A stretch of DNA of 53,612 nt from an uncultured Verrucomicrobiota bacterium (GTDB taxonomy: Bacteria > Verrucomicrobiota > Verrucomicrobiia > Limisphaerales > MWDV01). The stretch is from assembly GCA_964371005.1 (NCBI GenBank), contig CAYJNU010000001.1, forward strand, positions 27,104-80,715, read 5' to 3'. The notes under the pieces were generated by a model. That model was not told the origin of the DNA and searched no databases. It saw only the letters and a list, made by a program, of their open reading frames with translations. Position 1 is the first letter of the stretch. Each line of letters opens with the position of its first letter. The translations under genes were made by a program, and so were the position numbers. Below, one piece after another: positions 10,382 to 51,582 of this stretch.

Positions 10382-10412
10382 CCAGACGAGACGACGGCCA
10401 ACCCTTTGAGAC

Positions 10413-22663: not shown

Positions 22664-22669
22664 GCTGCC

Positions 22670-23116: not shown

Positions 23117-23150
23117 TACCGCGGCCTGAAACCGGGACAATCCCGCATTC

Positions 23151-23894: not shown

Positions 23895-23904
23895 CCGTGC
23901 TCCG

Positions 23905-24891: not shown

Positions 24892-24898
24892 ACGGGCG

Positions 24899-35519: not shown

Positions 35520-35773
35520 GACTTGCGGTTGGCGGCGACGAACTCCGCCAAGGCGGTGACCGACGCGAACGCCTTGTCGGCGACCTGCCGCTCCTGGATG
35601 ATGATGCCGTAGTCCTGATCCAGTAGCGCCACCAACTCCAGCGCGTCAATCGAGTCCAGCCCCAAGCCGGTACCGAACAGTGGTTCGTCGGCCTTGATGT
35701 CGGCGGGCTTCACGCTGTCGAGGTTCAACGCGGAGATGATCTTGGCTTTGAGTTCTTCAATCAGGCTTTCCAT
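35516..35773 (-). CDS. Acyl carrier protein
   Basis: 'LFGTGLGLDSIDALELVALLDQDYG' contains the DSI/DSL serine motif. It is 85 aa, with an ATGA overlap with the downstream KS-CLF. Confidence 0.9.
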   Translation of the reverse strand: MESLIEELKAKIISALNLDSVKPADIKADEPLFGTGLGLDSIDALELVALLDQDYGIIIQERQVADKAFASVTALAEFVAANRKS

Positions 35774-35800
35774 AAACGGCGCGGCAAGGGTAACGGTGGC

Positions 35801-37873: not shown

Positions 37874-38337
37874 GCGTTAAGGCGTTCGATCATGAATGGC
37901 GGCCAGGTGAGTATCAATTCACCGTCCGGCTTGGTGAAGACTTGCACGGTTCTGCCGGTCGCCAGCAAGGTCGGCTCGCCTTCACGGTGAATCTCGTAGG
38001 TAAACTCCAACCGCGCCGCGTCGGATTGCCACAAACGTGCCGTCACCTCCAGCACGTCCGCCATGCGCGCCGGCACAAGGTAATCTACCTGAAGCTGCAC
38101 GACCGGCGCGGCGGTGTTGTTCTCGAAGAACACCGGGTAATCGAGTCCATACCGGCGGCCCCAAGCGCGGCGGGCTTCCTCGAAGAAGTTCGCGTAGTGC
38201 CCATGCCAGACGATGCGCAACGCATCCACCTCGTTGAAACGCACGCGGACGGTGGTCCGCTCTTCCAGATACGGACGCGCGGCATGGGACGGCTGGGCGA
38301 GCGTGGGACGGCGGCGTGGAGCGTCGGGCGGTTTCAT
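37831..38337 (-). CDS. Hotdog-fold thioesterase (4HBT family)
   Basis: 'VRVRFNEVDALRIVWHGHYANFFEEARRAWGRRYG' is the 4HBT catalytic Asp block. ATGA overlap with the upstream acyltransferase gene. Confidence 0.75.
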   Translation of the reverse strand: MKPPDAPRRRPTLAQPSHAARPYLEERTTVRVRFNEVDALRIVWHGHYANFFEEARRAWGRRYGLDYPVFFENNTAAPVVQLQVDYLVPARMADVLEVTARLWQSDAARLEFTYEIHREGEPTLLATGRTVQVFTKPDGELILTWPPFMIERLNAWATLWKSPTTLLR

Positions 38338-39371
38338 GTGGGTTCATCCCAGAAAGGATAGAGGTTGAGCCATTGAAAAGGATACTGCCGGGCAACGGTT
38401 TCGAGACGCTGCACGAACTGAGCGACGTACGGACGTAGCGCTTCCACCGGCTGCCGCAGGACTTCGCGGGCAATGAACTGCGGCGGAAACGAGAAGAACC
38501 GGTATTCGCCCACCCGCTCGCGCACCGCGAACACTTGGAACAATGGCGCGCCGCTGGCAGCGGCCAGCTTGTAGGCGCCGACTGGAAACCGCGCCGAATG
38601 GCCGAAAAACGGCACGGCCAAATCTTCACCGCCGAACGAGCGGTCACCGTGCAGGAGAATGATTTCGCCGCGTTTCAGTGCGGCAAGAATTGGGATGCTG
38701 CGGAGCGGATGATCGTCGGTGGTCAGCAACCGAAATTGTTTTGCCTGCAACGCGTGGTCGAACAACTGCCGAATCCGCGCCTCCTCCTTTTCCACGACGA
38801 CCATGTTCACCGGTTTCCCGTGCCGGCCCAGCAAATGGCCGCCCATTTCCCAACCGCCGAGATGCGCGCCGAGGAGGATGATGCCACGACCTTGATCGAG
38901 GAATTCCCGGAACATCGTCTCGCCTTCGTAGCGACAATCCATCCGCGTGCGGCCCATGATCAGCGCGAGCCGATCCAGCAGTGTCACACCATACGCGTAG
39001 AAGTGGCGATAGACGAGCCCGAGGCGTTTCCACAACGGCTGCGGTCCAAGGGCGCGGCTCAGGAACTGCACCGAACTGCGCCGGGCAAGCGGGCTGGCGA
39101 CGAGGAAGTAAGCCGCCACTGGCGTCAGCCACGCGTAGGCCGCGCGCAACCCGAACAGGCGAATCAACTGCACGAACCACCAGTTGCCGAAGTAGCCGCC
39201 CCGCGTGCGTCCGGACCAGCGAACGGACGGGAGCGCGGCTGTCCCGGCCGCAGCGAGTTGCCCGGGTTGGCAGGCGGGTGATGCCTCGGGCGTGGGTGTA
39301 CCCGCGGACGATGCTGCAGTTGGGACAGCCTCGCTCCGGCGGGTCGGGGCAGCTCGGCTCGCTTCCATCAC
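38334..39371 (-). CDS. LpxL/HtrB-type lysophospholipid (lipid A biosynthesis-like) acyltransferase
   Basis: 'ILLGAHLGGWEMGG' (HX4E block of LABLAT-type acyltransferases), with size and TM-containing N-terminus as in that family. ATGA overlap with the ammonia-lyase stop supports the 39371 start. Confidence 0.7.
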   Translation of the reverse strand: MMEASRAAPTRRSEAVPTAASSAGTPTPEASPACQPGQLAAAGTAALPSVRWSGRTRGGYFGNWWFVQLIRLFGLRAAYAWLTPVAAYFLVASPLARRSSVQFLSRALGPQPLWKRLGLVYRHFYAYGVTLLDRLALIMGRTRMDCRYEGETMFREFLDQGRGIILLGAHLGGWEMGGHLLGRHGKPVNMVVVEKEEARIRQLFDHALQAKQFRLLTTDDHPLRSIPILAALKRGEIILLHGDRSFGGEDLAVPFFGHSARFPVGAYKLAAASGAPLFQVFAVRERVGEYRFFSFPPQFIAREVLRQPVEALRPYVAQFVQRLETVARQYPFQWLNLYPFWDEPT

Positions 39372-40936
39372 GGCGCGGCGGGTCGGGACGGCAGCAGCGT
39401 GCGTTGCGCATCGTCCGTTTGCAGCAGGGCGGTCACGCGCGCGATGTCCTCAAACAGCGGTCGGTCGTTCCCAAGCTTCTCCGAAACGCTGCGCACCAGC
39501 CGATGCACCTCGCGAAAATGCTCACCCATCACATCGCCGCCGCGCAGATCAGCAGCCTGCACGAGCGCCAGGGCTTGAATGCCAAGTAGCTTCCAAACCT
39601 TGCCCACCAGGTCGCGCGTCAGCCGTGCCGATATTGTGCCCATGCTGACCACGTCCTGATTGTTGGCGTTGGTCGGAATGGTCTGTACCGACGCAGGCGC
39701 GCTGAGCATGCGGCATTCGGCGGCGAGCGACGTGGCCAGAAGCTGCACGCCCATGAAACCGGAGTTCAGCCCGGAATCGCCGCCCGAGAGCAACGGCGGC
39801 AGGCCCAAGCTGTAGCGCCAATTCACCAGCCGCTCCAGTTGGCGTTCCGCCAGCAACGCGGTTTTCGCCAGGCCAAGGCGGAGGTAATCGCAAACCATCG
39901 CGATTTGCTGGCCATAAAAATTCCCGCAATGAATCACCGATTCGGTGTCCGGGAAGACGAGCGGATTATCGGTGGAGGCGTTCAATTCTCGGGTGATGAC
40001 GGCCTCAATGTGCCAGAGCGCCTCCTGAATTGCGCCCAGCACCTGCGGCGCGCAACGCACGGAATACGGGTCTTGAATCTCGACTCCCGGCTCGACGGGC
40101 TTCGCGTACGAACCCCACTGATGTTCGTCGATCTCGCGGCAGAATTTGGGGTGCGTGCGCAGGTGTTGGGCGATGCGATCCGCAACCGCGGATTGACCGC
40201 GGAAACCGCGAGCCTTGTGGACCTGTTCGCACAGCACTTCCGGCGACGCCCAAAGCGCCTGAAACAGGCAAGCCGTGAGCAATTCCATCCAACTCAAGAC
40301 CGCGGCCGCCTCGTGCGCGGCCAGGGCGGCCAGGGCCGCCATCACGGATGTGCCATTGACGAGCGCGAGACCTTCCTTGCACTGGAGCACCACCGGCCTG
40401 AGGCCATGCTTCGCCAGCGCCTCGGTAGCAGGCAACCGCTCGTCACCGACGCGCGCGTGCCCCAAACCCACCAACAGGCGCGACATGTGCGCCAGCGGGG
40501 CAAGGTCGCCGCTCGCGCCGACCGAACCTTCGCAAGGAATCTCGGGCAGGATGTCACTGTTCAACGCTGCGATGAGCAAGTCCACAACCTCAGGACGAAT
40601 ACCGGAGAATCCTCGCGCCAGCGCGTTGGCCCGCGCGGCCATGATGGCGCGGGTCTCGACGGCAGAGAAGAGCGGGCCTTGTCCGACGGAAAGATGGTGC
40701 AGCAGATTAACCTGGTGTTGGGCCAGGTCCTGGGGCGAGACGCGCGTGCCGCTGAGGGGACCGAAACCGGTGTTGATGCCATAAACCGCGCGCGGCTGGG
40801 CAGCAATGCTCTCGACGAGCGCGCGGCTGCGCGCCATCAACTCGCGGGCGGGAGCGGTCAGCGTACAGGGGTCATTCCGGTGGGCAACCTGCCACAGACG
40901 CGGAATGTTCAATTGGTGTCCGTTCAGCTCGGTCAT
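39368..40936 (-). CDS. MIO-dependent aromatic amino acid ammonia-lyase (HAL/PAL/TAL family; His-Leu selectivity pair suggests tyrosine ammonia-lyase)
   Basis: 'GSVGASGDLAPLAH' holds the Ala-Ser-Gly MIO triad (A141-S142-G143). 'YGINTGFG' is present. In 'QVNLLHHLSVGQG', His81-Leu82 sit at the substrate-switch position. Confidence 0.9.
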   Translation of the reverse strand: MTELNGHQLNIPRLWQVAHRNDPCTLTAPARELMARSRALVESIAAQPRAVYGINTGFGPLSGTRVSPQDLAQHQVNLLHHLSVGQGPLFSAVETRAIMAARANALARGFSGIRPEVVDLLIAALNSDILPEIPCEGSVGASGDLAPLAHMSRLLVGLGHARVGDERLPATEALAKHGLRPVVLQCKEGLALVNGTSVMAALAALAAHEAAAVLSWMELLTACLFQALWASPEVLCEQVHKARGFRGQSAVADRIAQHLRTHPKFCREIDEHQWGSYAKPVEPGVEIQDPYSVRCAPQVLGAIQEALWHIEAVITRELNASTDNPLVFPDTESVIHCGNFYGQQIAMVCDYLRLGLAKTALLAERQLERLVNWRYSLGLPPLLSGGDSGLNSGFMGVQLLATSLAAECRMLSAPASVQTIPTNANNQDVVSMGTISARLTRDLVGKVWKLLGIQALALVQAADLRGGDVMGEHFREVHRLVRSVSEKLGNDRPLFEDIARVTALLQTDDAQRTLLPSRPAAP

Positions 40937-41077: not shown

Positions 41078-42385
41078 TCAGGCTTTCAAACCGCTTCCAG
41101 CCGTCACAAACCACTGCCGCCATTCGGCACGGGAGATTTTACCACGCGCGTTGGTCGCCAGCTCCGGCACGAAGCGCCATTCGCGCGGCACGCACCACTC
41201 GGGCAGGCGTGCGAGCAGGAAGCTGCGCAACGTTTCCCGCCCGACTCCAGCCTCCGCCGCCAAGCACGCGACAATAACTTCTGCACGTGGCGCGTCAGGG
41301 CTGGGCACGCCAAAGACGACGCATTCCCGCACGCCGGGATGCGTGCGTAGCGCCTGCTCAATGGTTTCAGGCAGCACCTTGCGCCCGGCGACATTGATCT
41401 GGTCTCCTGCGCGCCCGCGGAGCAGAACCCGGCCCTCGCTCAGTTCGGCGAGGTCGCTCGTTTCAAACCGGCCGTTTCCCAACGCCGGGTCCGGCTCGGG
41501 CCAGTAGGTTTCACCCGCTGCCCCGCTCTGCACGGTGAGACAGCCGGTTTCATTGAGTGCAAGCCTTACGTTGCACATCGGCGCGCCAACAAAGGCATCA
41601 TCCTCGCGCGGATTGAAACTTGCGTCATAGGCGATGCCGCCGCACTCCGTTGCACCGTAGAAATTGTGAACCTTGAGTCCGCACGCGCGGAACAGTGTCT
41701 GTTCCAGCCCTGGGGACAGGGGGGCGCCGGCCGAAATGGCGAGGCGGACATTCGGCGGCACGGCAACAACCTCGTGCCACGCACGCCACAACGCCGGCAC
41801 GGCGGGCAGCGTAAGCGCCGGATGGCTGGCCGCGGCCTGCCGCATCGCTTCGGGCAGCGGTGAAGGCGCGAGGATCAGCGGAATGCCGTGAAGCAACAGC
41901 GGCAGAACAAGGTTGGAAAAGCCGTACGAATGCGCGAGCGAAATCACCCCGAGATTTGGCCAATCCGGTCGAAGGCCCATCGTGGCGACGATGTTGGTGG
42001 CATCGGCCGCGAGCTGTGAAGCGGTAAACGCCACCACCCGCGGCGTCCCGGTGCTGGCGGAGGTGGTCTTGAGATGAACACAAGGCGCGGGCGGCGTGGG
42101 CAGGGCGGGCGCCGTTTGACCAGGTTCAAGCGGCCACACCACGCGCCGGGTCCTCCAGCCGCGGAGCACTTCAAAGATGAATTCCGGGACGTGCCCTTGC
42201 GGATGCACGAATCGTTCGCCCGGCGATGGCAAACGCTCGGCTTCGCCGGCGAGTTCCCGGAATGACCATATTCGTCCGGAAGCCAGGTCGCTCAAGGCTC
42301 GGGCATCGGCATGGTCGCGAACGATTTGCTGCCAGCGTGCGTACAACATTGTTTGCGCTTGTGAAGTCGTTAGTATCCGCGCCAA
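41078..42385 (-). CDS. AMP-dependent synthetase/ligase (aryl/acyl-CoA or -ACP ligase, short form)
   Basis: 'LKTTSASTGTPRVV' (P-loop-like AMP-binding motif I), 'FYGATECGG' and 'FETSDLAEL...LLRGRAGDQINVAGRKV' (motifs of the adenylate-forming superfamily). Confidence 0.85.
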   Translation of the reverse strand: MARILTTSQAQTMLYARWQQIVRDHADARALSDLASGRIWSFRELAGEAERLPSPGERFVHPQGHVPEFIFEVLRGWRTRRVVWPLEPGQTAPALPTPPAPCVHLKTTSASTGTPRVVAFTASQLAADATNIVATMGLRPDWPNLGVISLAHSYGFSNLVLPLLLHGIPLILAPSPLPEAMRQAAASHPALTLPAVPALWRAWHEVVAVPPNVRLAISAGAPLSPGLEQTLFRACGLKVHNFYGATECGGIAYDASFNPREDDAFVGAPMCNVRLALNETGCLTVQSGAAGETYWPEPDPALGNGRFETSDLAELSEGRVLLRGRAGDQINVAGRKVLPETIEQALRTHPGVRECVVFGVPSPDAPRAEVIVACLAAEAGVGRETLRSFLLARLPEWCVPREWRFVPELATNARGKISRAEWRQWFVTAGSGLKA

Positions 42386-42386
42386 C

Positions 42387-43139
42387 GTGAGTTGGCAAGC
42401 AATTCAACCTCGCGCCCCCATTGCCGCGGCCCGCCGTTTCGTGTTTGAACGGGATACGTTCGCCTTTGCCAACGAGCTGATCTGGGAGTATCGCTTCGAC
42501 CCGATCACCGGCAAGGCCACGACGCTGTGGAACAAACCGCCGCCCAACTACGCTCATCGCTGCTTCGTGCTGACCCGCTCCGCCCGGCAATTCCTTTACC
42601 ACGCGCGTTTCGATGCCGCACTACCGGTGACGGATGGAGAAACCTATTGCCGGCTCATACGCACCGTGGTGTCGCGGGATCCCCGGCGTCCCGGCACGCC
42701 CGAGAACCGCGCGGTCGTTCCCGGCTACGAGGGATTGCGCGCGTTCAGCCTCGCGCACGAGCCGCTCCTGAAGACCCACTGTGGCGGCGCGTGGCAATCA
42801 TATTTCCTGCGCAGCCATTGGCGGATCGTGTTGCCCATGACGCGCGCGCACCAGGCAAAGATGGCGCAGCAGCTCGTGGATTCCTTTGCGCCGCGGCTCG
42901 CGCCCATCGCCCACCTCGTCCGCTTCCCACAACTCACCATCAACCACGGCATCGTGCTGACGGACCATGCGGAAACGCCGGCGGGCATTCGTTTCTCGGC
43001 GTACGATCCAAACGTCCCAGCCCAGCCAGCCGAGCTTTTCTTCGACCGCGAACAGCGCACGTTTCATTTTCCCCGGAACCATTACTGGCCGGGCGGACGC
43101 GTGGATGTGATCGAGGCGTATCGCGGCGGACTCTACTGA
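42387..43139 (+). CDS. Conserved-looking hypothetical protein (no family recognised)
   Basis: The ORF is open from 42177 but overlaps the divergent ligase gene there. In-frame GTGs at 42387 and 42441 are candidate starts. The composition is globular ('FVFERDTFAFANELIWEYRFDPITGKATTLWNKPPPNYAHRCFVLTRSARQFLYHARFD'). Confidence 0.45.
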   Translation: MSWQAIQPRAPIAAARRFVFERDTFAFANELIWEYRFDPITGKATTLWNKPPPNYAHRCFVLTRSARQFLYHARFDAALPVTDGETYCRLIRTVVSRDPRRPGTPENRAVVPGYEGLRAFSLAHEPLLKTHCGGAWQSYFLRSHWRIVLPMTRAHQAKMAQQLVDSFAPRLAPIAHLVRFPQLTINHGIVLTDHAETPAGIRFSAYDPNVPAQPAELFFDREQRTFHFPRNHYWPGGRVDVIEAYRGGLY

Positions 43140-43564
43140 ACTCGCGTTTTGTTGCGCCCCGCCGGCCGGAACGCCAGGCCGAAGAATACCAATCCACAAA
43201 CGTTGATACCCGCAATGTACCCCAGCTTGTAGGCGCGGCCCGAATTGGTCGGAGCATAGATCGGGACATCTTTTCCCATGAGGAGACTCGGCAGCGCCAC
43301 CGGCATCAACGCGCCATGAGTCGTGCCCAACCAGAATCCCGCCGTGTTCTCGGTGCGATACAGGCGCGGGGCTGCCCACGCGTAAACCCAGCCCAAGAGC
43401 AAGCCCACAACGACCAGAGTTGCCGCCTTCTGAAGCAGCCGCTGGACGCATCCACGTCGCCTGGCTTGGGCGGCGCCAGGCTCGGCGCCCGCGGCTTTGG
43501 GCGAACGTTCGCTTGCTGGTTGGTTCACGCGCCGAAGTCTAGCGAGCCACGGTTGCGATGCCAT
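43133..43564 (-). CDS. Small integral membrane protein (about 3 TM helices), unknown function
   Basis: The C-terminal 100 aa of ORF 43133..43891 contain hydrophobic spans 'ATLVVVGLLLGWVYAWAA', 'FWLGTTHGALMPVALPSLLM' and 'LGYIAGINVCGLVFFGLAF'. ATG 43564 was chosen; the start is uncertain. Confidence 0.4.
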   Translation of the reverse strand: MASQPWLARLRRVNQPASERSPKAAGAEPGAAQARRRGCVQRLLQKAATLVVVGLLLGWVYAWAAPRLYRTENTAGFWLGTTHGALMPVALPSLLMGKDVPIYAPTNSGRAYKLGYIAGINVCGLVFFGLAFRPAGRNKTRVQ

Positions 43565-43615
43565 TCCCGAATTGCGGTTGCTTGACGAGGTCGGCTTGGT
43601 AGGCTGTGGTTCAAC

Positions 43616-44644
43616 ATGCTTCACACGCCGACTGCGAGCGAACTTACCGCCCGGGACGGAGTCCAGGAGCGCCTCCACGAACGGGCGCGGGCCGCAGTCC
43701 ACTCCCGGTTTGGCCGGCAGGTGTTTGTCCGGGCCGTGGTCGAGGTTTCCAACTTCTGTCGGGAAAACTGCCATTACTGCGGCATGCGCCGCGACAACCG
43801 CGCCCTGCACCGGACACGCATCGCGAGGGATGAACTGTTGGAGCTGCTGGTGAATCATCGCCCTGCCGCCGTCACCGACATCATGCTTCAAGCCGGCGAA
43901 GACCCAGTGGCGGCGCGCGAAATCGTGCTTCCACTGGTGCAGGCCTTGCGCCGGGAAACGCCCTGCGGCATCAGCGCCTGCCTGGGCACGCTGGACAGGG
44001 CGTTGTGTTCAGATTTGAATGCCGCCGGGGCATCGGTTTGCGTGCTCAAGTTCGAAACCTCCGATCCCCGAATCTACGAACAATGCGAAGCCCCGGGCAC
44101 GCTGCACCAACGATTGGAGCATCTCCACTGGCTCGCGGCGAACGGTTGGTGGGTCAGTTCGGGATTCATCGTCGGGCTGCCCCGGCAAACGGTGGAATCG
44201 TGGCTCGCGGATTGTCAGCTCGCGTCGCGCCTGCCGGTGACGGGGTGCAGCGCCAGCCCGTTTGTGCCGGGCGAAGCCACTCCATTGGCGAATGCCCTGC
44301 CCGGGGACGTGGAGACCACCTTGAACTGCATGGCCGTGATGCGCCTGCTGCGGCCGGGCTGGATCATCCCTGCGGTCAGCGCGCTCAATATCGGCCAGCC
44401 GGGCAGCGGCTATCGACGCGGCCTGCGCGCGGGCGCGAACCTCGTCACCATCAACCTCACGCCGCGTGACCTGCAACGCGAATACCTCATCTACAAACGC
44501 GACCGCTTCATCATGAACGAGGAGCGCGTCATGACCGCGCTGGAGACCGAGGGATTGACACCGTCGCCCCAGAGCTTGACTGGCTTTTTCGGCAACCGCG
44601 CGGCGCAGGCCACCGGATCAACCATCGCGCAGGCGGCCACCTGA
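43616..44644 (+). CDS. Radical SAM protein, BioB/HydE/ThiH-like
   Basis: 'VEVSNFCRENCHYCGMRRDN' (CX3CX2C at C48/C52/C55). It is 342 aa with TIM-barrel-like periodicity as in BioB-type enzymes. Confidence 0.8.
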   Translation: MLHTPTASELTARDGVQERLHERARAAVHSRFGRQVFVRAVVEVSNFCRENCHYCGMRRDNRALHRTRIARDELLELLVNHRPAAVTDIMLQAGEDPVAAREIVLPLVQALRRETPCGISACLGTLDRALCSDLNAAGASVCVLKFETSDPRIYEQCEAPGTLHQRLEHLHWLAANGWWVSSGFIVGLPRQTVESWLADCQLASRLPVTGCSASPFVPGEATPLANALPGDVETTLNCMAVMRLLRPGWIIPAVSALNIGQPGSGYRRGLRAGANLVTINLTPRDLQREYLIYKRDRFIMNEERVMTALETEGLTPSPQSLTGFFGNRAAQATGSTIAQAAT

Positions 44645-44650
44645 GTTCAC

Positions 44651-46060
44651 ATGGCCAGCCGCGTCCTTCTCGTCAGCCCGAACCGATGTGTCACACCGGA
44701 CCCCGTGTTTCCGCTGGGGCTCGCCCATGTGAACGCGGCGTTGCGGACAGCGGGCCACGAAACGCGTTGGCTGGATGCGCTGGTCAACGGCGAGACGCTT
44801 GAAAGCGCATTGGCTGAATTCCAACCACACTTCGTCGGCGTATCGCTGCGCAACATTGACGACGTTTTGATCCTGAAAAAGGAGACGTATTTCGATGAAC
44901 TCGCGCGCATCACGGAAACGGTGCGGCGTGTGCGTCCCTGCCCGGTGATTCTCGGCGGGAGCGGTTTCTCGGTGATGCCGGAGCGGTTGCTGACTGCCAG
45001 CGGGGCCGACTTCGGAATTCATGGTGAAGGCGAATCTGGCTTGGTTGCGCTGCTGGCGGCGTTGGAACAAGGCACTGATCCGACGGGATTGAAGGGCCTG
45101 GTGTTTCGCCGTAATGGGAGCGTGATGGCGAACCCACCTCAGCCCGCGCCGGTCACGCAGCCGCTGGCGGAGGCGGATCGCCCCGCGGCGCTTGTCGAAC
45201 ATTACGTGCGTACCAGCGGCATGTTGAACCTCCAGACCCAGCGGGGTTGCGCCCACACCTGTTGCTATTGCACCTACCCGCTCATTGAGGGTCGCCGTCA
45301 CCGCCGTCGCCCGCCGGAGTTGATCGCTGAGGAAATGGTCCAACTCAAAGAGCGCGGGGTGAACTACGTGTTCATCGTGGATTCGATATTCAACTCGTCG
45401 CCGGCGCACGTTGCGGAAACATGCGATGCCCTCCTGCGACGGGGAGTGGCCATGCGCTGGGGATGCTTCCTGCGCCCCGCCGGCCTGACCGCCGAACTGA
45501 TGAAGCTCATGGCCCGTGCGGGGCTGGCGCATGCGGAGTTCGGCTCGGATAGTCTTTGCGATCCTGTGCTGGAAGCCTACGGGAAACGCTTCTGCTTCGA
45601 CGAGGTGGCCCAGAGTTCGGAATTCGCACGTGAAGCCGGGGTGGATGCGTGTCACTTCCTGATCTGCGGCGGACCGGGGGAAACCGAAGCGACGTTGGAG
45701 ACCTCGTTTCAGAATTCGCTGCGACTGCCGAACCCGATCATCATGGCGGTCGTCGGCATGCGGATTTATCCGGGCACCGAACTCCAAAAACGGGCGATGG
45801 CTGAAGAGGTCATCACGCCAGATACAGACCTGCTGCCACCCGTGTATTATCTCGCGCCGGGTTTGACGGAGGAAGGTGTATTCGCACGCCTGCGCGAGTT
45901 TGCCAAACGCAGCGCGGGCTGGATTCCCGGCGATCCCGGCCCGTCGTACGCGAGCCTGGTGCAGCGCCTCCGGCGCCGCGGCGTGGCCGGGCCGTTGTGG
46001 AGCTACTTCGCCATGCTGCAACGCATCATGCCACCGGCGCCGCAGTCCACCGCTGCATGA
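44651..46060 (+). CDS. B12-binding-domain radical SAM protein (class B), lipid-biosynthesis-associated type
   Basis: N-terminal Rossmann-like B12 domain 'RVLLVSPNRCVTPDPVFPLGLAHVNAALRTAGHE...FVGVSLRNIDD...ILGGSGFS'. Radical SAM motif 'QRGCAHTCCYC'. Confidence 0.85.
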   Translation: MASRVLLVSPNRCVTPDPVFPLGLAHVNAALRTAGHETRWLDALVNGETLESALAEFQPHFVGVSLRNIDDVLILKKETYFDELARITETVRRVRPCPVILGGSGFSVMPERLLTASGADFGIHGEGESGLVALLAALEQGTDPTGLKGLVFRRNGSVMANPPQPAPVTQPLAEADRPAALVEHYVRTSGMLNLQTQRGCAHTCCYCTYPLIEGRRHRRRPPELIAEEMVQLKERGVNYVFIVDSIFNSSPAHVAETCDALLRRGVAMRWGCFLRPAGLTAELMKLMARAGLAHAEFGSDSLCDPVLEAYGKRFCFDEVAQSSEFAREAGVDACHFLICGGPGETEATLETSFQNSLRLPNPIIMAVVGMRIYPGTELQKRAMAEEVITPDTDLLPPVYYLAPGLTEEGVFARLREFAKRSAGWIPGDPGPSYASLVQRLRRRGVAGPLWSYFAMLQRIMPPAPQSTAA

Positions 46061-47442
46061 AACGCCTCCTCCTTATCTCGCCCGTCGCGTCGCGCAGCCT
46101 CATGGGCGGGGACTTCTTCTTCCGCATGCCGTGTCTGGCGTTACTGAAAGTCGCCGCGCTCACACCGCCGGGTTGGGAGGTGCGGGTGGTGGATGAGAAG
46201 GTCGAAACGCTCGACCTCGAACAAAGCTCGGATGTGGTTGGCATCACGGCGGTGACTCCCACCGCGCCGCGTGCTTACGTCATCGCTGATCATTTCCGGA
46301 AGCGCGGCTGCCGTGTGGTTATGGGGGGCATGCATGCGTCGGTTTTGCCAGAGGAAGCGCTCAAGCACTGTGATGCAGTGGTCATTGGCGAGGCGGAACA
46401 TCTCTGGCCGCGCGCGCTCAAGGATTTCGAGCAAGGCACGTTGCAGCCAGTCTATCGCCACGAAGATGGGTTGCCTGCGCTGGATGGTTTGCCCCGACCC
46501 AACTGGGAGCTGTTTCGAGAAAAGCGTTACCTGCCCGTGCATTTCGTCGAAACCACGCGCGGCTGTCCGCTCGACTGCGAATTCTGTGCAGTGACCAGTT
46601 CCTTTGGTGGTCGCTATCGCAACCGCCCGCTCGACGAAGTGTTGGCCGAGTTGCACGGTCTCAAGCCGTTCGACGGCCTGCTGACACTGAAGAACTGCGT
46701 GTTCTTCGTGGACGACAACATTTTCAGCAACCGCGCCTACGCCCGGGAATTGTTCACGCGCATCGCCGACCTGAAGCTAATCTGGTTCGGTCAGGCCTCC
46801 GTGAACATTGCGAATGATGACGAAATCCTGCGACTCGCCCGGCGTAGCGGCTGCACCGGCCTGTTCATGGGGCTGGAGTCGCTTTCCGAGCAGACCCTCC
46901 GCGCCGCGGGCAAACGGGTGAACCATCCGGAACACTATCTCGACGTGATTCGCAAGTTGCACGACCATGGCATTGGCGTGGACGCCTCGTTCGTGTTTGG
47001 CTTCGACACGGACGATTTGGGCGTCTTTGACCGCACGCTGGAGTTTGCGATCCGGGCAAAGGTGGAGGTTGCCTACTTCTCGATCCTTACGCCGTATCCC
47101 GGCACGCGCGTCCACAATCGGCTGCGCGAGGAAGGCCGGCTGTTCAGCACCGACTGGTCGCTCTACGACAGCAGCCGCGTGGTTTATCGCCCCAAGACCA
47201 TGACGCCGGACCAATTGCTCGATGGCTATCATCGCACGCTGAAGAGCTTCTACTCGGTGTCCTCGGTCTGCCGGCGATTATGGGGAGCAAGCTCGCGGAA
47301 GAACTTCTTTTATCCGATGAACTTCGGTTTCCGCCAGAGTGTGAAGCGGCTTTCGCAGACCTACCACGCCGGCGGATTGCGCGTCGAACCGCAAGCGGAA
47401 CTCGTGAATCATGTTGTTCCCTCCACCGAAACCTCCTGCTGA
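46057..47442 (+). CDS. B12-binding-domain radical SAM protein (class B, with a DUF4070-like C-terminus)
   Basis: ATGA overlap with the upstream gene. 'LLLISPV...PCLALLKVAALTPPGWEVRVVDE...VVGITAVTPTAPRAY...VVMGGMHAS' is the B12 domain. 'TRGCPLDCEFC' is the radical SAM motif. Confidence 0.85.
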   Translation: MKRLLLISPVASRSLMGGDFFFRMPCLALLKVAALTPPGWEVRVVDEKVETLDLEQSSDVVGITAVTPTAPRAYVIADHFRKRGCRVVMGGMHASVLPEEALKHCDAVVIGEAEHLWPRALKDFEQGTLQPVYRHEDGLPALDGLPRPNWELFREKRYLPVHFVETTRGCPLDCEFCAVTSSFGGRYRNRPLDEVLAELHGLKPFDGLLTLKNCVFFVDDNIFSNRAYARELFTRIADLKLIWFGQASVNIANDDEILRLARRSGCTGLFMGLESLSEQTLRAAGKRVNHPEHYLDVIRKLHDHGIGVDASFVFGFDTDDLGVFDRTLEFAIRAKVEVAYFSILTPYPGTRVHNRLREEGRLFSTDWSLYDSSRVVYRPKTMTPDQLLDGYHRTLKSFYSVSSVCRRLWGASSRKNFFYPMNFGFRQSVKRLSQTYHAGGLRVEPQAELVNHVVPSTETSC

Positions 47443-48652
47443 ACCGCCGCGGGTCGTTGTCACCGGCGCGGGTATCGTCACCGCGCTCGGGATGGGCTGG
47501 CAGGTCAACGCGGAAGGCTTCCGCGTTGGGCGAACCGCCTTCCGCCCGGTCACGCTGTTCGACGTTTCGCGGCAACGCGTGAAACTGGCGGCGGAAGTGG
47601 ATCTACCCCAAACCCTGCCGGCGACGTTACTGCCTGAGAAGGAAACTCGCCGCCTCGACCGCGCCGGACGATTGCTGCTTCTAGCCGCTCGCGAGGCTTG
47701 GCAACAAGCGGGCTGGACACCGGACGAAACGCTGCCTGTGGTGATGGGGACCACCAGTGGCGGCATGAACTCAGGCGAGCAGTACTACCGCAAAGCAATT
47801 GCATCGACATCGGCGAAGCGTGGTCAGCCAACGCTTGCGTTGCATTATCAGGCACAAACCCAAGCCCGGTTGGTGGCTGAAGCCTTGGGCGCGGGCGGAC
47901 CGATTCAACTCGTGGCCAACGCCTGTGCTTCGGGCGCGAATGCCATCGGCTGCGCCTGGGAGTTACTCCGGCGCGGACGTGCAACGCGTGTGCTCACCGG
48001 CGGCTACGATGCACTGAGCTTGCTTACGTTCTCCGGCTTCGACGCGTTGCAGGCGCTCTCGACCACATCCTGCCGACCATTCGACGCAAAGCGAGACGGA
48101 CTGGCATTGGGCGAAGGAGCGGGTGTGCTCACATTGGAGACGCTGGACTCGGCTCGTCAGCGCAACGCGGTCATTCTGGGTGAAATCACCGGCTATGGCG
48201 CGGGCATTGACCTGCACCACCTCACCCAACCGCATCCCCAAGGCGACGCCGCGCTGGAAACCATGCGCCTCGCTTGCGCCAGCGCCGGGGTTTCTCCGGC
48301 CGAGGTGGATTACGTCAACGCGCACGGCACCGGGACGCCGTTGAACGACACCGCGGAAGCCATCGCCCTCGCACGCTGGGCCGGCGAATGCGCCTCCACG
48401 CTGCCGGTCAGCTCCACCAAGGCCAGCATCGGCCATCTCCTCGGGGCAGCGGGCGCGGTCGAAGCCGTCGTCAGCTTAATGGCGCTCCGCGGACAATGGC
48501 TGCCACCCGAGCGCGTGGTGGAAACCCCAGATCCAGCGTGCCGCTTCCCGCTAGTGCTCGAACCAATGGAACGGCGCGTGAACGTGGTGCTGTCGAACTC
48601 GTTTGGCTTTGGCGGGGCGAACGCCAGCCTGATTTTGCGGAGGTTCGCATGA
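47411..48652 (+). CDS. Beta-ketoacyl-ACP synthase (FabF/KS-alpha type)
   Basis: 'RVVVTGAGIVTALG', 'ANACASGANAIG' (active Cys), 'NAHGTGTPLNDTAE' and 'GHLLGAAG' (His/His), and 'SNSFGFGGANASL'. Confidence 0.9.
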   Translation: MLFPPPKPPAEPPRVVVTGAGIVTALGMGWQVNAEGFRVGRTAFRPVTLFDVSRQRVKLAAEVDLPQTLPATLLPEKETRRLDRAGRLLLLAAREAWQQAGWTPDETLPVVMGTTSGGMNSGEQYYRKAIASTSAKRGQPTLALHYQAQTQARLVAEALGAGGPIQLVANACASGANAIGCAWELLRRGRATRVLTGGYDALSLLTFSGFDALQALSTTSCRPFDAKRDGLALGEGAGVLTLETLDSARQRNAVILGEITGYGAGIDLHHLTQPHPQGDAALETMRLACASAGVSPAEVDYVNAHGTGTPLNDTAEAIALARWAGECASTLPVSSTKASIGHLLGAAGAVEAVVSLMALRGQWLPPERVVETPDPACRFPLVLEPMERRVNVVLSNSFGFGGANASLILRRFA

Positions 48653-49674
48653 CGCGCATCGGCCTCAGCGGCTGGGGCGCGGTTTCGCCGGCGGGCTGGG
48701 GCGTGCCCGCAATGCGCGCCGCGTTGGAGCACGGCGCGCCCATCCCCGCTCAGCCAATGACGCGCCCCGACGGTTCGGTCCTGTGGGTTCGGAACGTGCC
48801 ACCTCCGTCGCCAGCGCGCCCAGCTTTCCTCGCGCATCCTCGACTGCGGCGCACGAGCGTGATCACTCATGCCTGTGCGGCCGCAACGCTGGAGGCTTTG
48901 GAGCCAATCAGGGCAACGGGCGGCAACCGCGAGAACCGGCTGGGGTTGATCGTCTGTCTGCTGGCAGGTTGCACACAATACACCGAACGCTTCTACAAAG
49001 AAGTGCTGCAAGATCCGGCCACCGCCGGCCCACTCATCTTTCCGGAAACCGTGTTCAACGCTCCCGCCAGCCACCTTGCGGTGCTGTTGGGCGGCGTGAC
49101 CGCTTGTTACACGTTGCTGGGGGATCCGGCGTCGTTTCTCACCGGAGTGGCGCTCGCCGCAGATTGGCTGCTTGAAGGAAGGGTGGACTCCTGCGTCGTG
49201 CTCGGCGCCGAGGAGCCACACTGGTTGCTGGCCGACGCGTTGCGGCACTTCGATCCACAGGCTGTGCTCGGCGGTGGCGCCGGCGCGCTCTGCCTTACGC
49301 GGCAAGAGGAGGCGCAAGCTCCCGTCGAGTTGGATTTGATCACGGACGCTTTTCTCTACTCTCACACCCGAACCCGCTCCGCCGCTGCTGCACAGATGCG
49401 GTACGCCTTGCCGCCGGCTGCTCCCGGCGAGCTGCTTTGCGACGGTTTGCAGGGGGCACCGCATTCTGACCGGGCCGAGACTGCGGCTTGGCGTACCTGG
49501 CCCGGCTCGCGGATCAGCCCCAAGATGGTGCTCGGCGAAGGGCTGATGGCCGCCGCCGCCTGGCAGTGCGTTATTGCTTGCGACACTCTGGCCATGGGCC
49601 GCCACCCTGCAGGACAAGTCAGCCTGGTGGGCGTCAATCAGCAGGCGGTAGGTGCGCGATTTCAGGGCGCCTAA
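48649..49674 (+). CDS. KS-like chain length factor (no active-site Cys or His pair)
   Basis: ATGA overlap with the KS stop. It has KS-fold-like blocks ('RIGLSGWGAVSPAG', 'VVLGAEE'), but 'TLLGDPASFLTG' replaces the Cys block. The internal ATG 48649 of ORF 48274..49674 was chosen. Confidence 0.7.
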   Translation: MTRIGLSGWGAVSPAGWGVPAMRAALEHGAPIPAQPMTRPDGSVLWVRNVPPPSPARPAFLAHPRLRRTSVITHACAAATLEALEPIRATGGNRENRLGLIVCLLAGCTQYTERFYKEVLQDPATAGPLIFPETVFNAPASHLAVLLGGVTACYTLLGDPASFLTGVALAADWLLEGRVDSCVVLGAEEPHWLLADALRHFDPQAVLGGGAGALCLTRQEEAQAPVELDLITDAFLYSHTRTRSAAAAQMRYALPPAAPGELLCDGLQGAPHSDRAETAAWRTWPGSRISPKMVLGEGLMAAAAWQCVIACDTLAMGRHPAGQVSLVGVNQQAVGARFQGA

Positions 49675-51518: not shown

Positions 51519-51546
51519 TTTTTTCTTCGTGTTTTGAGGAAAAGGC

Positions 51547-51575: not shown

Positions 51576-51582
51576 AGACTCC

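Follow-up and report, generated by a model that had tools for sequence, protein, structure and literature searches.

A unit of five forward-strand genes, encoding three radical SAM (rSAM) enzymes, a beta-ketoacyl-ACP synthase (KS) and a KS-like partner resembling a chain-length factor (CLF), lies in a 53,612-nucleotide stretch of DNA (the window) from an uncultured Verrucomicrobiota bacterium. The unit is a member of the already catalogued 'ladderane-type' family of lipid gene clusters and not a new kind of system. Its core, rSAM2-KS-CLF, is conserved, rSAM1 and rSAM3 are accessories that have been gained and lost independently, and the cassette recurs in many uncultured Verrucomicrobiota. What does it make? 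With somewhat less than even confidence, the five genes are read here as an elongation-plus-tailoring module of a large aryl-polyene (APE)-type outer-membrane lipid or pigment cluster, with rSAM2, and probably rSAM3, as predicted C-methyltransferases. The genes are:

43616-44644, + strand: rSAM1, 342 aa; HydE/PylB-like radical SAM protein; optional accessory of the cassette
44651-46060, + strand: rSAM2, 469 aa; cobalamin-binding radical SAM protein, TIGR04072 member; core gene of the cassette
46057-47442, + strand: rSAM3, 461 aa; second cobalamin-binding radical SAM protein, with C-terminal DUF4070; optional accessory, in no curated family
47411-48652, + strand: KS, 413 aa; FabF-like beta-ketoacyl-ACP synthase with intact Cys-His-Lys-His
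48649-49674, + strand: CLF-like partner, 341 aa; degenerate FabF without the catalytic triad (Pro/Asp/Lys/Glu)

The first-pass annotation had described five packed forward-strand genes with one gap and three overlaps; this is exact, and an independent gene caller reproduced every boundary. A 6-nt gap separates rSAM1 from rSAM2 (TGA GTTCAC ATG), ATGA overlaps join rSAM2 to rSAM3 (46057-46060) and the KS to its partner (48649-48652), and rSAM3 and the KS overlap by 32 nt (47411-47442). Eleven public metagenome contigs, drawn from several samples, carry the identical sequence, and their recorded gene calls give proteins of 342, 469, 461, 413 and 341 aa with identical junctions. Because these independent calls agree, the five start sites are not an artefact of ORF picking. 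Purifying selection acts on the whole set: measured against one relative that is ~89 % identical (dS 0.84-1.3), dN/dS is 0.157 for rSAM1, 0.076 for rSAM2, 0.065 for rSAM3, 0.074 for the KS and 0.142 for the CLF-like gene, and these low values indicate that all five are functional. In the same relative, inserts of 341 nt and 178 nt, both carrying a REP-like palindrome, open the rSAM1/rSAM2 and rSAM2/rSAM3 junctions, respectively, so the tight coupling at these two points is lineage-specific; this relative keeps the overlaps of rSAM3 with the KS and of the KS with the CLF.

Does the linkage hold beyond this lineage? Homologues were checked for loss of linkage in a survey of 57 informative loci with an rSAM2 orthologue, and the linkage stands. 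The KS directly follows rSAM2, with or without an intervening rSAM3, in 38 of the 57, where identities are 53-66 % and the reading frames overlap or nearly abut; 13 rSAM2 orthologues have no adjacent KS. Four gene orders make up the linked loci: rSAM1-rSAM2-rSAM3-KS (12), rSAM1-rSAM2-KS (9), rSAM2-rSAM3-KS (9) and rSAM2-KS (8). At least 12 of the 57 loci have the full five-gene order, in which the rSAM3 orthologues P0173 and P0129 lie, and in two loci (L023 and L107) it is followed by KR and ACP genes. An rSAM1 orthologue lies directly upstream of rSAM2 at 23/57 loci, and rSAM3 lies between rSAM2 and the KS at 21/57, with six more copies where there is no adjacent KS. At another locus (L108) the cassette stands alone among housekeeping genes.

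The iron-sulphur motifs attributed to the three enzymes are all found in the proteins concerned: CRENCHYC at residue 48 of rSAM1, CAHTCCYC at residue 200 of rSAM2 and CPLDCEFC at residue 170 of rSAM3. The expected Pfam domains are likewise present, namely Radical_SAM (the only domain listed) in rSAM1, B12-binding and Radical_SAM in rSAM2, and B12-binding, Radical_SAM and DUF4070 in rSAM3. The HMM searches that had been proposed also place rSAM2 in a lipid-associated family. It passes the NCBIfam model TIGR04072 'rSAM_ladder_B12' (full name 'lipid biosynthesis B12-binding/radical SAM protein') with 402.9 bits against a cutoff of 360, and its orthologues in Verrucomicrobiota bear this name in NCBI (PGAP). 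No reaction has been demonstrated for any TIGR04072 member, and in August 2026 the homologue from anammox bacteria was still listed under 'unknown transformation'.

Among characterised enzymes, rSAM2 comes nearest to BzaD (204.6 bits) and the TsrM type (160.3 bits), whose scores are well under the family cutoffs (204 vs 450; 160 vs 500); HpnR, PhpK and BchE are far lower, and the best PDB match is TsrM (6wte, 130.7 bits). The domain order is the same in rSAM2, TsrM and BzaD, and the equivalent of TsrM Arg69, which lies under the cobalamin, is invariant across the family (R67-N-x-D). By contrast, rSAM2 has Ile in place of TsrM Glu273, the residue that keeps SAM from binding the cluster; SAM can thus probably ligate the cluster, and 5'-dA radical chemistry is expected. 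TsrM and BzaD methylate free aromatic sp2 carbons, BzaD being a predicted Csp2-methylase like TsrM, but rSAM2 has a lipid/polyketide context and not a thiopeptide or cobamide one. rSAM1 matches the HydE model TIGR03956 (187 bits, below the cutoff of 254.6) and PylB (109 bits), with the same two enzymes in the PDB (145 and 83 bits); both act on amino-acid-type substrates. The top families for rSAM3, all far under their cutoffs, mix cyclase (BchE, 96 bits), ring-contraction (HpnJ, 95 bits) and methylase (HpnR, 88 bits) chemistry, and its PDB match is QCMT (9ccb, 59 bits).

The KS has the N- and C-terminal Pfam ketoacyl-synt domains, scores 363 bits against the fabF model (under the cutoff of 493) and is invariant at its Cys/His/Lys/His positions in 49 of 49 orthologues. 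Its PDB matches are led by Thermus thermophilus FabF (293 bits), ahead of amxFabF2 (9s5h_B, 248 bits) and ApeO-type 6qsp (177 bits). An intact KS beside a partner without the catalytic Cys had been proposed, and the partner indeed has Pro/Asp/Lys/Glu at these sites. Across 39 orthologues of the partner, the Cys is replaced by Pro, Ala or Asp, the second His by Glu (37/39), and the Lys is retained in 30; the same pattern is listed for Kuste3606 and Kuste2805. The partner's Pfam ketoacyl-synt match is sub-threshold only, and as a single sequence it has one significant PDB match (E 1.4e-5), to 9s5h_C, which is amxFabF-mut in the amxFabF-het structure 9s5h of B. fulgida. A profile of 19 orthologues again finds this chain best (9e-14), although at 54 bits the match is remote; FabFs follow, and ApeC, the actinorhodin CLF and Iga12 are absent from the PDB matches of this profile. 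Judged by sequence, the KS and its dead partner bear the hallmarks of a KS/chain-length-factor pair of the amxFabF2/amxFabF-mut kind.

The cassette adjoins a larger set of genes, which occupy the window to its left:

21234..26737, + strand: left-arm block with a second ACP (21234-21557), GcvT-like protein, 4HBT thioesterase, FabG/FlxB-like KR, FabD-like acyltransferase and FeeM-aminotransferase fusion
26745..33159, - strand: lipid assembly/export block with polysaccharide deacetylase, LolA-like protein, unknown 241-aa protein, C45 acyltransferase/TPR, PlsC-like acyltransferase, FabZ/ApeI-like dehydratase and FMN-reductase+SCP2
32991..39368, - strand: aryl-polyene-type core operon with LpxL-like acyltransferase, 4HBT thioesterase, two KS-CLF fusions and ACP (Pfam and NCBIfam)
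39368..40936, - strand: aromatic amino acid ammonia-lyase, TAL/HAL type (Pfam Lyase_aromatic, 531 bits)
41078..42349, - strand: AMP-dependent ligase, ApeH-like adenylating enzyme, oriented divergently from the cassette (Pfam AMP-binding and AMP-binding_C)
42387..43139, + strand: DUF8321/DUF8322 protein, 250 aa, between the AMP-ligase and rSAM genes (precomputed Pfam on a public gene call)
43133..43564, - strand: small conserved membrane-like protein, oriented divergently from rSAM1 and uncalled in this contig's public annotation

The module is embedded in, or travels with, an APE-type skeleton, to which the TAL operon is added in this lineage. Around the cassettes of relatives this skeleton comprises MMPL/LpxL-AT, LolA, an ApeI-like dehydratase (DH), an AMP-ligase and GT2; the AMP-ligase orthologues (51-68 % identity) adjoin the cassette at most loci. 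The DUF8321/DUF8322 protein also has orthologues at most loci (50-66 % identity); it had no match in the Pfam and NCBIfam copies searched, and its Pfam assignment comes via the public call. The small membrane-like protein has homologues called as genes at L023, L105 and L107, is 58 % identical to the 136-aa gene of L023 and keeps 52 invariant columns in a four-way alignment. The ammonia-lyase, probably the supplier of an aryl starter, scores 497 bits against HAL and 382 against FlxA, both under cutoffs. Its orthologues (79-83 % identity) lie near rSAM2 at L043, L049 and L047 in differing arrangements; together with the window, the TAL operon accompanies rSAM2 in three (window, L043/L049, L047), although no TAL is found within 10 kb at many related loci. 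The core operon, whose KS-CLF fusions are 690 and 842 aa and whose ACP is at 35516-35773 (an 85-aa PP-binding protein in public gene calls), has its counterpart directly after rSAM2 at L047. The 21234..26737 block is probably the left arm of the cluster; at L048 an orthologue of its KR (74 % identity) is directly upstream of rSAM2.

How does this compare with known systems? Rattray et al. 2009 (PMC2649909) described rSAM-containing FAS-II-like clusters in Kuenenia, Desulfotalea, Geobacter and Pelobacter, and antiSMASH 'ladderane' BGCs have been reported in non-anammox phyla, Verrucomicrobiota included. With a curated NCBI family as well, the novelty first ascribed to the cassette was overstated. 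Conversely, the ladderane parallel is stronger than claimed: since rSAM2 is in TIGR04072 and the CLF-like protein is nearest to amxFabF-mut, the link is a family relationship and not a mere analogy. TIGR04072 neighbourhoods share with the window a cobalamin rSAM from that family, an active KS of the FabF type with a triad-less FabF (Lys kept, His333 to Glu), and nearby genes for an aryl/phenylacetyl-CoA-ligase-like AMP enzyme, polysaccharide deacetylase, acyltransferases and lipoprotein-carrier-like proteins. The present cassette differs in the number of its rSAM genes, as many as three of which immediately precede KS/CLF within a single operon, the extra ones including HydE/PylB-like and DUF4070-type enzymes, in the attached TAL operon with its two KS-CLF fusion proteins and in its Verrucomicrobiota host; no phytoene-desaturase-like gene was found here.

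Anammox Cluster I (KustE3603-3608: amxACP, amxFabZ, amxFabF2, amxFabF-mut, PDH, B12-rSAM) likewise has a KS/dead-KS pair and a cobalamin rSAM in one operon, and the pair is a functional heterodimer (bioRxiv 10.64898/2026.05.19.726425). The likeness of rSAM2 to the anammox rSAM is through the family and not by direct sequence comparison, and the KS is no nearer to amxFabF2 than to ordinary FabFs. In the window the rSAM genes come first and the KS precedes the CLF, whereas anammox FabF-mut is upstream of FabF2; PDH and an adjoining amxACP-amxFabZ block are absent. With APE and flexirubin clusters (ApeA-S of E. coli/Xenorhabdus; FlxA/FlxB) the window shares an adenylating enzyme, ACPs, KS/CLF, an ApeI-like dehydratase, a FabG-like KR (FlxB-like, 236 bits), 4HBT thioesterase, LpxL-like acyltransferase, LolA and a flexirubin-like TAL, and relatives add an MMPL exporter and GT2. 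All these family scores are under cutoffs, however, the KS-CLF proteins of the TAL operon are fusions, and the cassette CLF is not ApeC-like (no PDB match to 6qsp chain B). That aryl polyene clusters lack rSAM genes is true of the characterised clusters but not in Verrucomicrobiota, where an rSAM-containing APE-type skeleton is common.

On the reading favoured here, the lyase and AMP-ligase would provide and load an aryl starter, e.g., p-coumarate, which the KS/CLF systems would lengthen on ACP. rSAM2, and probably rSAM3, would be C-methyltransferases that work by cobalamin-dependent radical chemistry and need no oxygen. Their target would be an sp2 carbon, or one adjacent to it, in the aryl head group or the polyene, presented either as free starter or as ACP-bound chain. 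They may replace the SAM-dependent methyltransferase (ApeB type) missing from the cluster; a scan of the cluster ORFs (19.5-50.9 kb) yielded no protein with a Methyltransf domain. rSAM1 would contribute a further radical reaction, its likeliest substrate being a precursor that resembles an amino acid. C-methylation of an aryl/polyene unit is the best guess because the closest characterised relatives of rSAM2 are TsrM and BzaD, and C-methyltransferases are the majority of characterised cobalamin rSAM enzymes. The first-pass annotation had placed the radical chemistry on the ACP-bound chain. This is one option only, given the free aromatics used by TsrM/BzaD and the amino-acid-type substrates of HydE/PylB, and modification of the aromatic starter would seem at least as likely.

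Alternatively, the KS/CLF might make or extend an ordinary acyl-ACP independently of any aryl polyene, with the rSAMs branching or modifying the aliphatic chain (e.g., anaerobic mid-chain methylation) and acyltransferases, LolA and MMPL placing it in the outer membrane; adjacency of the TAL operon would then reflect a common destination and not a common substrate. The KS resembles housekeeping FabF more than the ApeO type, and the L108 cassette is solitary, so such a substrate is possible. The family name 'lipid biosynthesis', the absence of a TAL within 10 kb at most related loci, and the hopanoid methylases HpnP and HpnR, cobalamin rSAM enzymes that methylate lipid sp3 carbons, point the same way. 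It is nevertheless rather unlikely: the near-constant partners are APE-type (ApeI-like DH, ApeH-like AMP-ligase, LolA, MMPL/LpxL-AT fusion), the TAL operon stays beside rSAM2 through three rearrangements, and rSAM2 is nearer to aromatic sp2 methylases than to HpnR.

Ring-forming or other C-C bond chemistry, in which one or more rSAMs cyclise or cross-link an unsaturated ACP-bound chain during KS/CLF elongation to give carbocyclic lipids (cyclobutane, cyclopropane, cyclopentane), would be related in mechanism to the ladderane proposals, one of which is a stepwise 'cyclise while elongating' scheme. The ladderane-named family of rSAM2, the amxFabF-mut-like partner, the BchE and HpnJ matches of rSAM3, and the GrsA/GrsB precedent for ring making in lipids by cobalamin rSAMs are consistent with it. 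It is improbable all the same, since the phytoene-desaturase-like gene of anammox Cluster I is absent from the window ORFs scanned, the FabZ/ApeI-like dehydratase and two ACPs lie elsewhere in the cluster instead of adjoining KS/CLF, and the closest characterised relatives of rSAM2 are methylases. Moreover, ladderanes are known from anammox bacteria only, Desulfotalea makes none despite a syntenic cluster, and rSAM1 and rSAM3 are dispensable at many loci, which fits decoration better than scaffold building. Could the rSAMs instead serve unrelated pathways, such as HydE-type hydrogenase maturation or BzaD-like synthesis of the B12 lower ligand? HydE is the best match of rSAM1, BzaD the second-best of rSAM2, and some rSAM2 orthologues lack a KS neighbour. 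Such coincidental adjacency is very improbable, and effectively refuted by the synteny data: the linkage persists in 38 of the 57 loci at 53-66 % identity with overlapping or near-abutting frames, ACP and KR follow the cassette in relatives, the HydE and BzaD scores are far under cutoffs while rSAM2 passes another family, and no hydrogenase or Bza genes occur among the window ORFs scanned.

A fourth rSAM gene had been counted at the far edge of the cluster (19500-20927), but nothing was found that ties it to the cassette. It encodes a bona fide hopanoid HpnJ (711 bits against a cutoff of 577.6) and adjoins a gene for an HpnI-like glycosyltransferase, which points to hopanoid side-chain chemistry.

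The cassette consists of five plus-strand genes, which encode three radical SAM (rSAM) proteins, a ketosynthase (KS) and a KS-like partner (CLF):

43616-44644, plus strand: rSAM1, 342 aa, motif CRENCHYC; Pfam Radical_SAM
44651-46060, plus strand: rSAM2, 469 aa, motif CAHTCCYC at residue 200; PF02310 at residues 19-134 and PF04055 at 196-351
46057-47442, plus strand: rSAM3, 461 aa, motif CPLDCEFC; Pfam B12-binding, Radical_SAM and DUF4070
47411-48652, plus strand: KS, 413 aa; both Pfam KS domains
48649-49674, plus strand: KS-like partner, 341 aa; Pfam KS match sub-threshold only

An ORF check confirmed these genes at the positions claimed in the first-pass annotation, together with the junctions it had described (a gap of 6 nt, two ATGA overlaps, at 46057 and 48649, and one of 32 nt at 47411-47442) and the CxxxCxxC motif it had read in each rSAM protein. 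The Pfam assignments agree, with Radical_SAM in all three, B12-binding in rSAM2 and rSAM3, and DUF4070 in rSAM3. Eleven public metagenome contigs, drawn from several samples, carry the identical sequence, and the same five products and junctions have been called on them. In comparison with L105, a relative of about 89% identity, dN/dS is 0.157 for rSAM1, 0.076 for rSAM2, 0.065 for rSAM3, 0.074 for KS and 0.142 for the partner, at dS values of 0.84-1.3. Taken with the matching public gene calls, these ratios indicate that the five genes are real and constrained.

Is the tight coupling of the genes conserved as well? The first-pass annotation had treated all five as one translationally coupled unit, and this is conserved only in its second half. 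In L105 the rSAM3/KS and KS/CLF overlaps are kept, but the rSAM1|rSAM2 and rSAM2|rSAM3 junctions are opened by inserts of 341 nt and 178 nt (9660-10000 and 11411-11588), so the three rSAM genes have no conserved translational coupling. Both inserts, which are also present in L106, share a 51-nt element whose copies are 76% identical. In the first insert of L105 this element forms a 30-nt imperfect palindrome (TCTTGGAGGGCGGCGGCCCGCCGCCACTTT / AAAGCGGTAGAGGGCCGCCGCACTTCAAGA) and resembles REP/MITE sequences; it is not detectable in the window, where four weak matches compare with 2.4 expected by chance. An Rfam search of the whole window at the gathering threshold for a riboswitch or other RNA upstream of the operon returned only tRNA-Pro, and a permissive scan of 42300-43700 added no RNA ahead of the cassette. 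Terminator and promoter scans of 42300-51600 gave four terminator-like sites against 10.2 in shuffled sequence and are, with fewer sites than the shuffles, uninformative on operon structure.

rSAM2 is a member of the NCBIfam family TIGR04072 ('lipid biosynthesis B12-binding/radical SAM protein', model name rSAM_ladder_B12). It scores 402.9 bits (E 1.4e-120; residues 4-451 against model positions 1-439 of 443) where the curated cutoff is 360 bits, it has the B12-binding and radical SAM architecture, and its neighbourhood is of the KS/ACP type. NCBI has assigned the same family name to its Verrucomicrobiota orthologues P0033 and P0113. The next-best NCBIfam families are BzaD (204.6 bits) and the TsrM-type tryptophan C2-methylase (160.3 bits), both well above HpnR, PhpK and BchE, and the best PDB relative is TsrM (130.7 bits). 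Arg69 of TsrM, which lies under the cobalamin ('VRNTD'), aligns with the 'LRNID' of rSAM2, where R67, N68 and D70 are invariant in the family alignment. Glu273 of TsrM is a ligand of the unique iron and stops the radical from forming (PMC8992657); its position is occupied by Ile in rSAM2. From this substitution and the retained Arg69 equivalent we infer that rSAM2 is a cobalamin enzyme still capable of generating the 5'-dA radical. Assignment of rSAM2 to the TsrM-type non-radical methylases (TIGR04428) was rejected, given a score of 160 bits against a cutoff of 500 and the Ile in place of Glu273.

The two other rSAM proteins are harder to place. rSAM1 falls below every NCBIfam cutoff, with 187 bits against 254.6 on the HydE model TIGR03956; in the PDB it matches HydE (145 bits) and PylB (83 bits). 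A role as the [FeFe]-hydrogenase maturase HydE was rejected on the sub-cutoff score and on context, as neither hydrogenase nor maturase genes (HydA, HydF, HydG) were found among the window ORFs scanned. When rSAM1 is aligned by eye with E. coli BioB, only one of the three [2Fe-2S] cysteines appears to be matched (C122), which makes BioB-type sulfur insertion less likely. A literature search on HydE-like and PylB-like enzymes found nothing relevant. rSAM3 fits no curated NCBIfam family (BchE 96, HpnJ 95 and HpnR 88 bits), and its best structural match is the glutamine C-methyltransferase QCMT (9ccb, 59 bits). Reviews from 2026 still place the rSAM enzymes of 'ladderane' clusters under unknown transformations or as uncharacterised, and describe no characterised TIGR04072 member.

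The KS is FabF-like, with PDB matches to T. thermophilus FabF (293 bits), 9s5h chain B (248 bits) and 6qsp (177 bits), and its Cys/His/Lys/His residues are invariant in 49 orthologues. The partner has Pro/Asp/Lys/Glu at these positions, so that the first-pass description of an intact KS beside a partner lacking the catalytic Cys is correct. Across 39 partner orthologues the Cys position holds Pro, Ala, Asp or Gln (Gln in four), the first His is mostly Asp, the Lys is kept in 30 and the second His is Glu in 37. In the chain-length factors of type II polyketide synthases the active-site Cys is replaced by a conserved Gln, used for malonyl-ACP decarboxylation. The partner was rejected as such a factor, having Pro at the Gln position; a PDB search with a profile of 19 partner orthologues gave no match to the actinorhodin CLF, Iga12 or ApeC. 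The same profile places 9s5h chain C (E = 9e-14) above ordinary FabFs, and chain C is the sole significant match of the single sequence. The 9s5h structure is the amxFabF2/amxFabF-mut heterodimer of Brocadia fulgida (Supplementary Table 2, bioRxiv 10.64898/2026.05.19.726425), and the anammox pair is a functional KS/CLF-like heterodimer (same preprint). The combination of a retained Lys with His333 changed to Glu has been tabulated for Kuste3606 and Kuste2805 (PMC2649909). By these sequence features the KS and its partner would correspond to the active FabF2 and triad-less FabF-mut pairing that is likewise found in anammox Cluster I. At one related locus (L045, 11442-13781) the order is rSAM2-CLF-KS, as reported for anammox bacteria, where amxFabF-mut is upstream of amxFabF2; at another (L074, 12721-13731) a CLF-like gene follows rSAM3 and the KS is about 7 kb away.

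How widely is this arrangement conserved? A genome scan for rSAM2 relatives returned 19 loci, the most distant at 35% identity. The closest are nearly all Verrucomicrobiota metagenome-assembled genomes (57-65% identity), with single matches from Nitrospirota, Fibrobacteria and Acidobacteria. The best 80 loci of a metagenome scan, taken with alignment, have 53-66% identity and are in many cases from peat or wetland; the best 120 protein matches listed for rSAM2 are all Verrucomicrobiota-like. Window proteins were mapped onto the loci by tblastn, and the count was restricted to the 57 loci whose sequence extends 1.1 kb or more upstream and 3 kb or more downstream of the rSAM2 orthologue; the numbers are approximate because some loci are the same organism sampled twice (e.g., L023 and L024). 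The order rSAM1-rSAM2-rSAM3-KS occurs in 12 of the 57, rSAM1-rSAM2-KS in nine, rSAM2-rSAM3-KS in nine and rSAM2-KS in eight. Without an adjacent KS, rSAM2-rSAM3 is found in four and rSAM1-rSAM2-rSAM3 in two, and rSAM2 is solitary in the remaining 13. The KS is thus directly downstream in two thirds of the informative loci (38/57), and all four combinations of presence and absence of rSAM1 and rSAM3 are seen. The co-conservation on which the first-pass annotation had staked its reading therefore holds for rSAM genes and KS, with the complete order in a subset.

Five-gene loci resemble each other beyond the cassette. At a locus of 65% identity (L023/L024) public gene calls give the full order followed by a ketoreductase (KR) and an ACP; upstream are an MMPL/LpxL-acyltransferase fusion, LolA, an ApeI-like dehydratase, an AMP-ligase, DUF8321/8322 and GT2. 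The arrangement recurs in L107, whose rSAM3 protein has index entries in 110 blocks of the collection. The five-gene order was recovered again by a search seeded with rSAM3 orthologues. Of 34 loci with wide flanks, the majority of those with KS/CLF also have genes for ACP, AMP-ligase, DUF8321/2, the small membrane protein, GT2, ApeI-like, LolA and MMPL proteins. An aromatic amino acid ammonia-lyase (TAL) operon is divergent from the cassette in the window and L105 but lies about 4-5 kb downstream of the CLF in L043 and L049. In L047 a solitary rSAM2 orthologue is followed directly by TAL-LpxL-TE-KS690-KS842-deacetylase (47-83% identity), and in L048 an orthologue of the window KR (74% identity) abuts rSAM2. 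That the partnership with TAL and KR has survived rearrangement speaks for functional coupling. Not all loci conform: the L108 cassette sits by itself amid housekeeping genes, and the Nitrospirota orthologue of rSAM2 has a nitrilase, a two-component system and a porin as neighbours. In L015 (6608-13664) and L016 (11483-13666), genes for a class II DAHP synthase and a SIS-domain protein come after a solitary rSAM2 orthologue (59-60% identity), and in L015 a DHQ-synthase-like gene lies about 2 kb upstream. This is suggestive of a link to aromatic precursor supply, but these may be ordinary shikimate genes and the observation carries little weight. In L004 (15592-16764), L031 and L073 an extra rSAM3 paralogue (35-38% identity) is present just downstream of the CLF or KR, so that a cassette can contain more cobalamin rSAM genes than the window has.

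The neighbours of the cassette in the window are as follows:

21234-26737, plus strand: arm with second ACP, GcvT-like protein, thioesterase, FabG/FlxB-like KR, FabD-like acyltransferase and FeeM-aminotransferase fusion
32991-37873, minus strand: two KS proteins of 842 and 690 aa, with the same lengths in public gene calls
35516-35773, minus strand: 85-aa ACP between these two
41078-42349, divergent from the cassette: AMP-ligase
42387-43139, left of the cassette: DUF8321/DUF8322 protein
43133-43564, minus strand: small membrane-like gene, conserved, missing from this contig's public annotation
right of the cassette, opposite strand: PHB-depolymerase-like esterase
51441-51518, right of the esterase: tRNA-Pro
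directly after tRNA-Pro, within 49675-53166: integrase-like gene, 527 aa

The minus-strand operon starts with TAL, an LpxL-like acyltransferase and a 4HBT thioesterase, continues with the 690-aa protein, the ACP, the 842-aa protein, a polysaccharide deacetylase and LolA, and ends with a C45 acyltransferase, a PlsC-like acyltransferase, a FabZ/ApeI-like dehydratase and an FMN-reductase/SCP2 protein. The C-terminal halves of the 842- and 690-aa proteins are weakly KS-like (CLF- or AmcG-like), so both look like KS-CLF fusions. On the plus-strand arm, the second ACP (21234-21557; motif LGLDSLDALE) appears to overlap, in ATGA style, the likely true start of the GcvT-like gene at about 21554. The last protein of the arm is an unusual fusion, 702 aa long, in which a FeeM-type N-acyl amino acid synthase is joined to a CobD/HisC-like PLP enzyme; L105 has instead a stand-alone FeeM gene between TAL and the LpxL-like gene. 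The small membrane-like gene occupies the apparent intergenic gap between the DUF8321/2 gene and rSAM1 and starts about 50 nt from the rSAM1 start; it is called in three related loci and has a hydrophobic core of about 95 aa, with 52 invariant columns in a four-way alignment at 54-65% identity. Taken together, the genes around the cassette are predicted to form an aryl-polyene (APE)/flexirubin-like pathway with aromatic starter supply. Nothing follows the CLF but the opposite-strand esterase, tRNA-Pro and the integrase, where relatives have KR and ACP, and the right flank (49675-53166) may be the edge of an integrated element.

The APE core set is recognisable in the window: the AMP-ligase, two ACPs, three KS/CLF systems, the FabG/FlxB-like KR, the FabZ/ApeI-like dehydratase and 4HBT thioesterases. 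Of the export and attachment set, the window has the LpxL-like acyltransferase and LolA, whereas L023 and L107 have all four including GT2 and MMPL; no MMPL gene was found in the window and no GT2 inside its cluster. No SAM-dependent methyltransferase of the ApeB type known from APE clusters was found among the window cluster ORFs between 19.5 and 50.9 kb. With rSAM genes present, ApeB absent and a CLF that is not ApeC-like, this is not a canonical APE cluster. Nor is it anammox Cluster I, which has a phytoene-desaturase-like PDH and has amxACP and amxFabZ adjoining the KS pair; the window ORFs scanned contain no amine-oxidase/phytoene-desaturase domain, and the window ACPs and FabZ-like gene are elsewhere in the cluster. 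No anammox sequences are among the listed rSAM2 relatives, so the relation of rSAM2 to the anammox rSAM rests on the name and score of the NCBIfam model. The FAS-II-like clusters that Rattray et al. (2009) reported from Kuenenia, Desulfotalea, Geobacter and Pelobacter carry rSAM genes and triad-less FabFs together with a 'phenylacetyl-CoA ligase', a glycosyltransferase and a membrane protein; in the same study Desulfotalea yielded no ladderanes (PMC2649909). Homologous clusters have been known since then in other, culturable bacteria. Ladderanes have been reported from anammox bacteria only, and antiSMASH 'ladderane' clusters with unknown products are found in Verrucomicrobiota and other non-anammox phyla (PMC8692599, PMC9902471). 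The window cluster is best described as a Verrucomicrobiota form of the lipid cluster type marked by TIGR04072, joined to an APE/flexirubin-like pathway. Non-exhaustive literature searches found no paper on the three-rSAM cassette or its link to the TAL operon, none naming TIGR04072, and no title or abstract joining aryl polyene, radical SAM and chain length factor.

What might the rSAM enzymes do in such a pathway? Synteny and selection show a conserved cassette of a predicted active KS, a dead FabF-type partner and one to three rSAM genes inside an APE-type lipid cluster. Coincidental adjacency is contradicted by the synteny across loci and is effectively excluded. The first-pass proposal that the enzymes act on the ACP-bound chain made by this KS/CLF fares less evenly: its link between rSAM and KS/CLF genes stands, conserved by synteny, but an ACP-bound substrate is not specifically supported. 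In the scheme favoured here, the lyase and AMP-ligase would provide an aryl acid and load it, the KS/CLF systems would elongate it on ACP, and rSAM2 and probably rSAM3 would be oxygen-independent, cobalamin-dependent C-methylases acting on the free aromatic starter or on the ACP-bound chain. Methylation is favoured because the nearest characterised relatives of rSAM2 are TsrM and BzaD, methylases of aromatic Csp2 carbons, because methyltransferases predominate among characterised cobalamin rSAM enzymes, and because the cluster lacks any SAM-dependent methyltransferase (no Methyltransf domain among cluster ORFs between 19.5 and 50.9 kb). The optional nature of the accessory rSAM genes also suits decoration over scaffold building.

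The same optional nature weighs against ring formation, in which the TIGR04072-type, HydE-like and DUF4070-type enzymes would forge C-C bonds in an ACP-bound polyene during extension by the KS/dead-KS pair, without methylation. The inclusion of BchE and HpnJ among the best family matches of rSAM3 and the real family link of rSAM2 to anammox clusters speak for ring formation, which we nevertheless consider improbable. If it were true, Verrucomicrobiota would make a new class of carbocyclic aryl-polyene or fatty-acyl lipids by ladderane enzymology, and non-anammox cassettes in another host would give an experimental entry to ladderane biosynthesis. A less likely alternative is that the rSAM enzymes modify an ordinary acyl chain and have no part in making the aryl polyene; a KS of FabF type and the isolated cassette of L108 fit this, and the recurrent partnership with TAL fits it less readily. 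Nothing in the analysis yet separates methylation from more exotic chemistry.

The reaction of cobalamin rSAM enzymes in 'ladderane-type' lipid clusters has been an open problem since 2009, and to our knowledge anammox bacteria are not genetically manipulable. In many Verrucomicrobiota a TIGR04072 enzyme and a matching KS/dead-KS pair form a compact, strongly conserved cassette, with the other two rSAM genes behaving as optional additions, and this cassette appears wired into an aryl-polyene-type pathway with recognisable aromatic starter supply. The gene set at 41078-49674 (about 8.6 kb) is a small, concrete unit for heterologous expression, and loci without rSAM1 and/or rSAM3 offer natural 'knock-out' variants. 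Methylases would imply an anaerobic route to decorated aryl polyenes, and ring-forming enzymes would bear directly on ladderane biosynthesis; either outcome would show what class of product is made by a gene cluster that is very common in Verrucomicrobiota of soil and peat.

Further to the left, the window contains:

461-16214: flagellar FlgI, FlgK, FlgL-like protein and flagellin, then a cytidylyltransferase and a capsule-synthesis-like protein
within 461-16214: 1933-aa multidomain protein with methyltransferase, GT4, three GT2 and TPR domains
19500-20927, minus strand: HpnJ, TIGR03471 at 711 bits against a cutoff of 577.6, full length

The last of these had been counted in the first-pass annotation as a fourth rSAM gene at the edge of the cluster. 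It was rejected as a cassette member, being a genuine HpnJ beside an HpnI-like glycosyltransferase. The two genes are convergent with an overlap of about 100 nt (18308-20927), and the neighbour, a GT21 glycosyltransferase, has HpnI as its sole NCBIfam match (116 bits against a cutoff of 310). The pair looks like one for hopanoid cyclitol-ether side chains, situated beside the polyene cluster. The 'HpnJ-like' tblastn matches near rSAM2 orthologues in L017 and L018 have only 26-28% identity, and those genes are other class-B rSAMs and not HpnJ. The genes at 461-16214 may constitute a flagellin glycosylation island.
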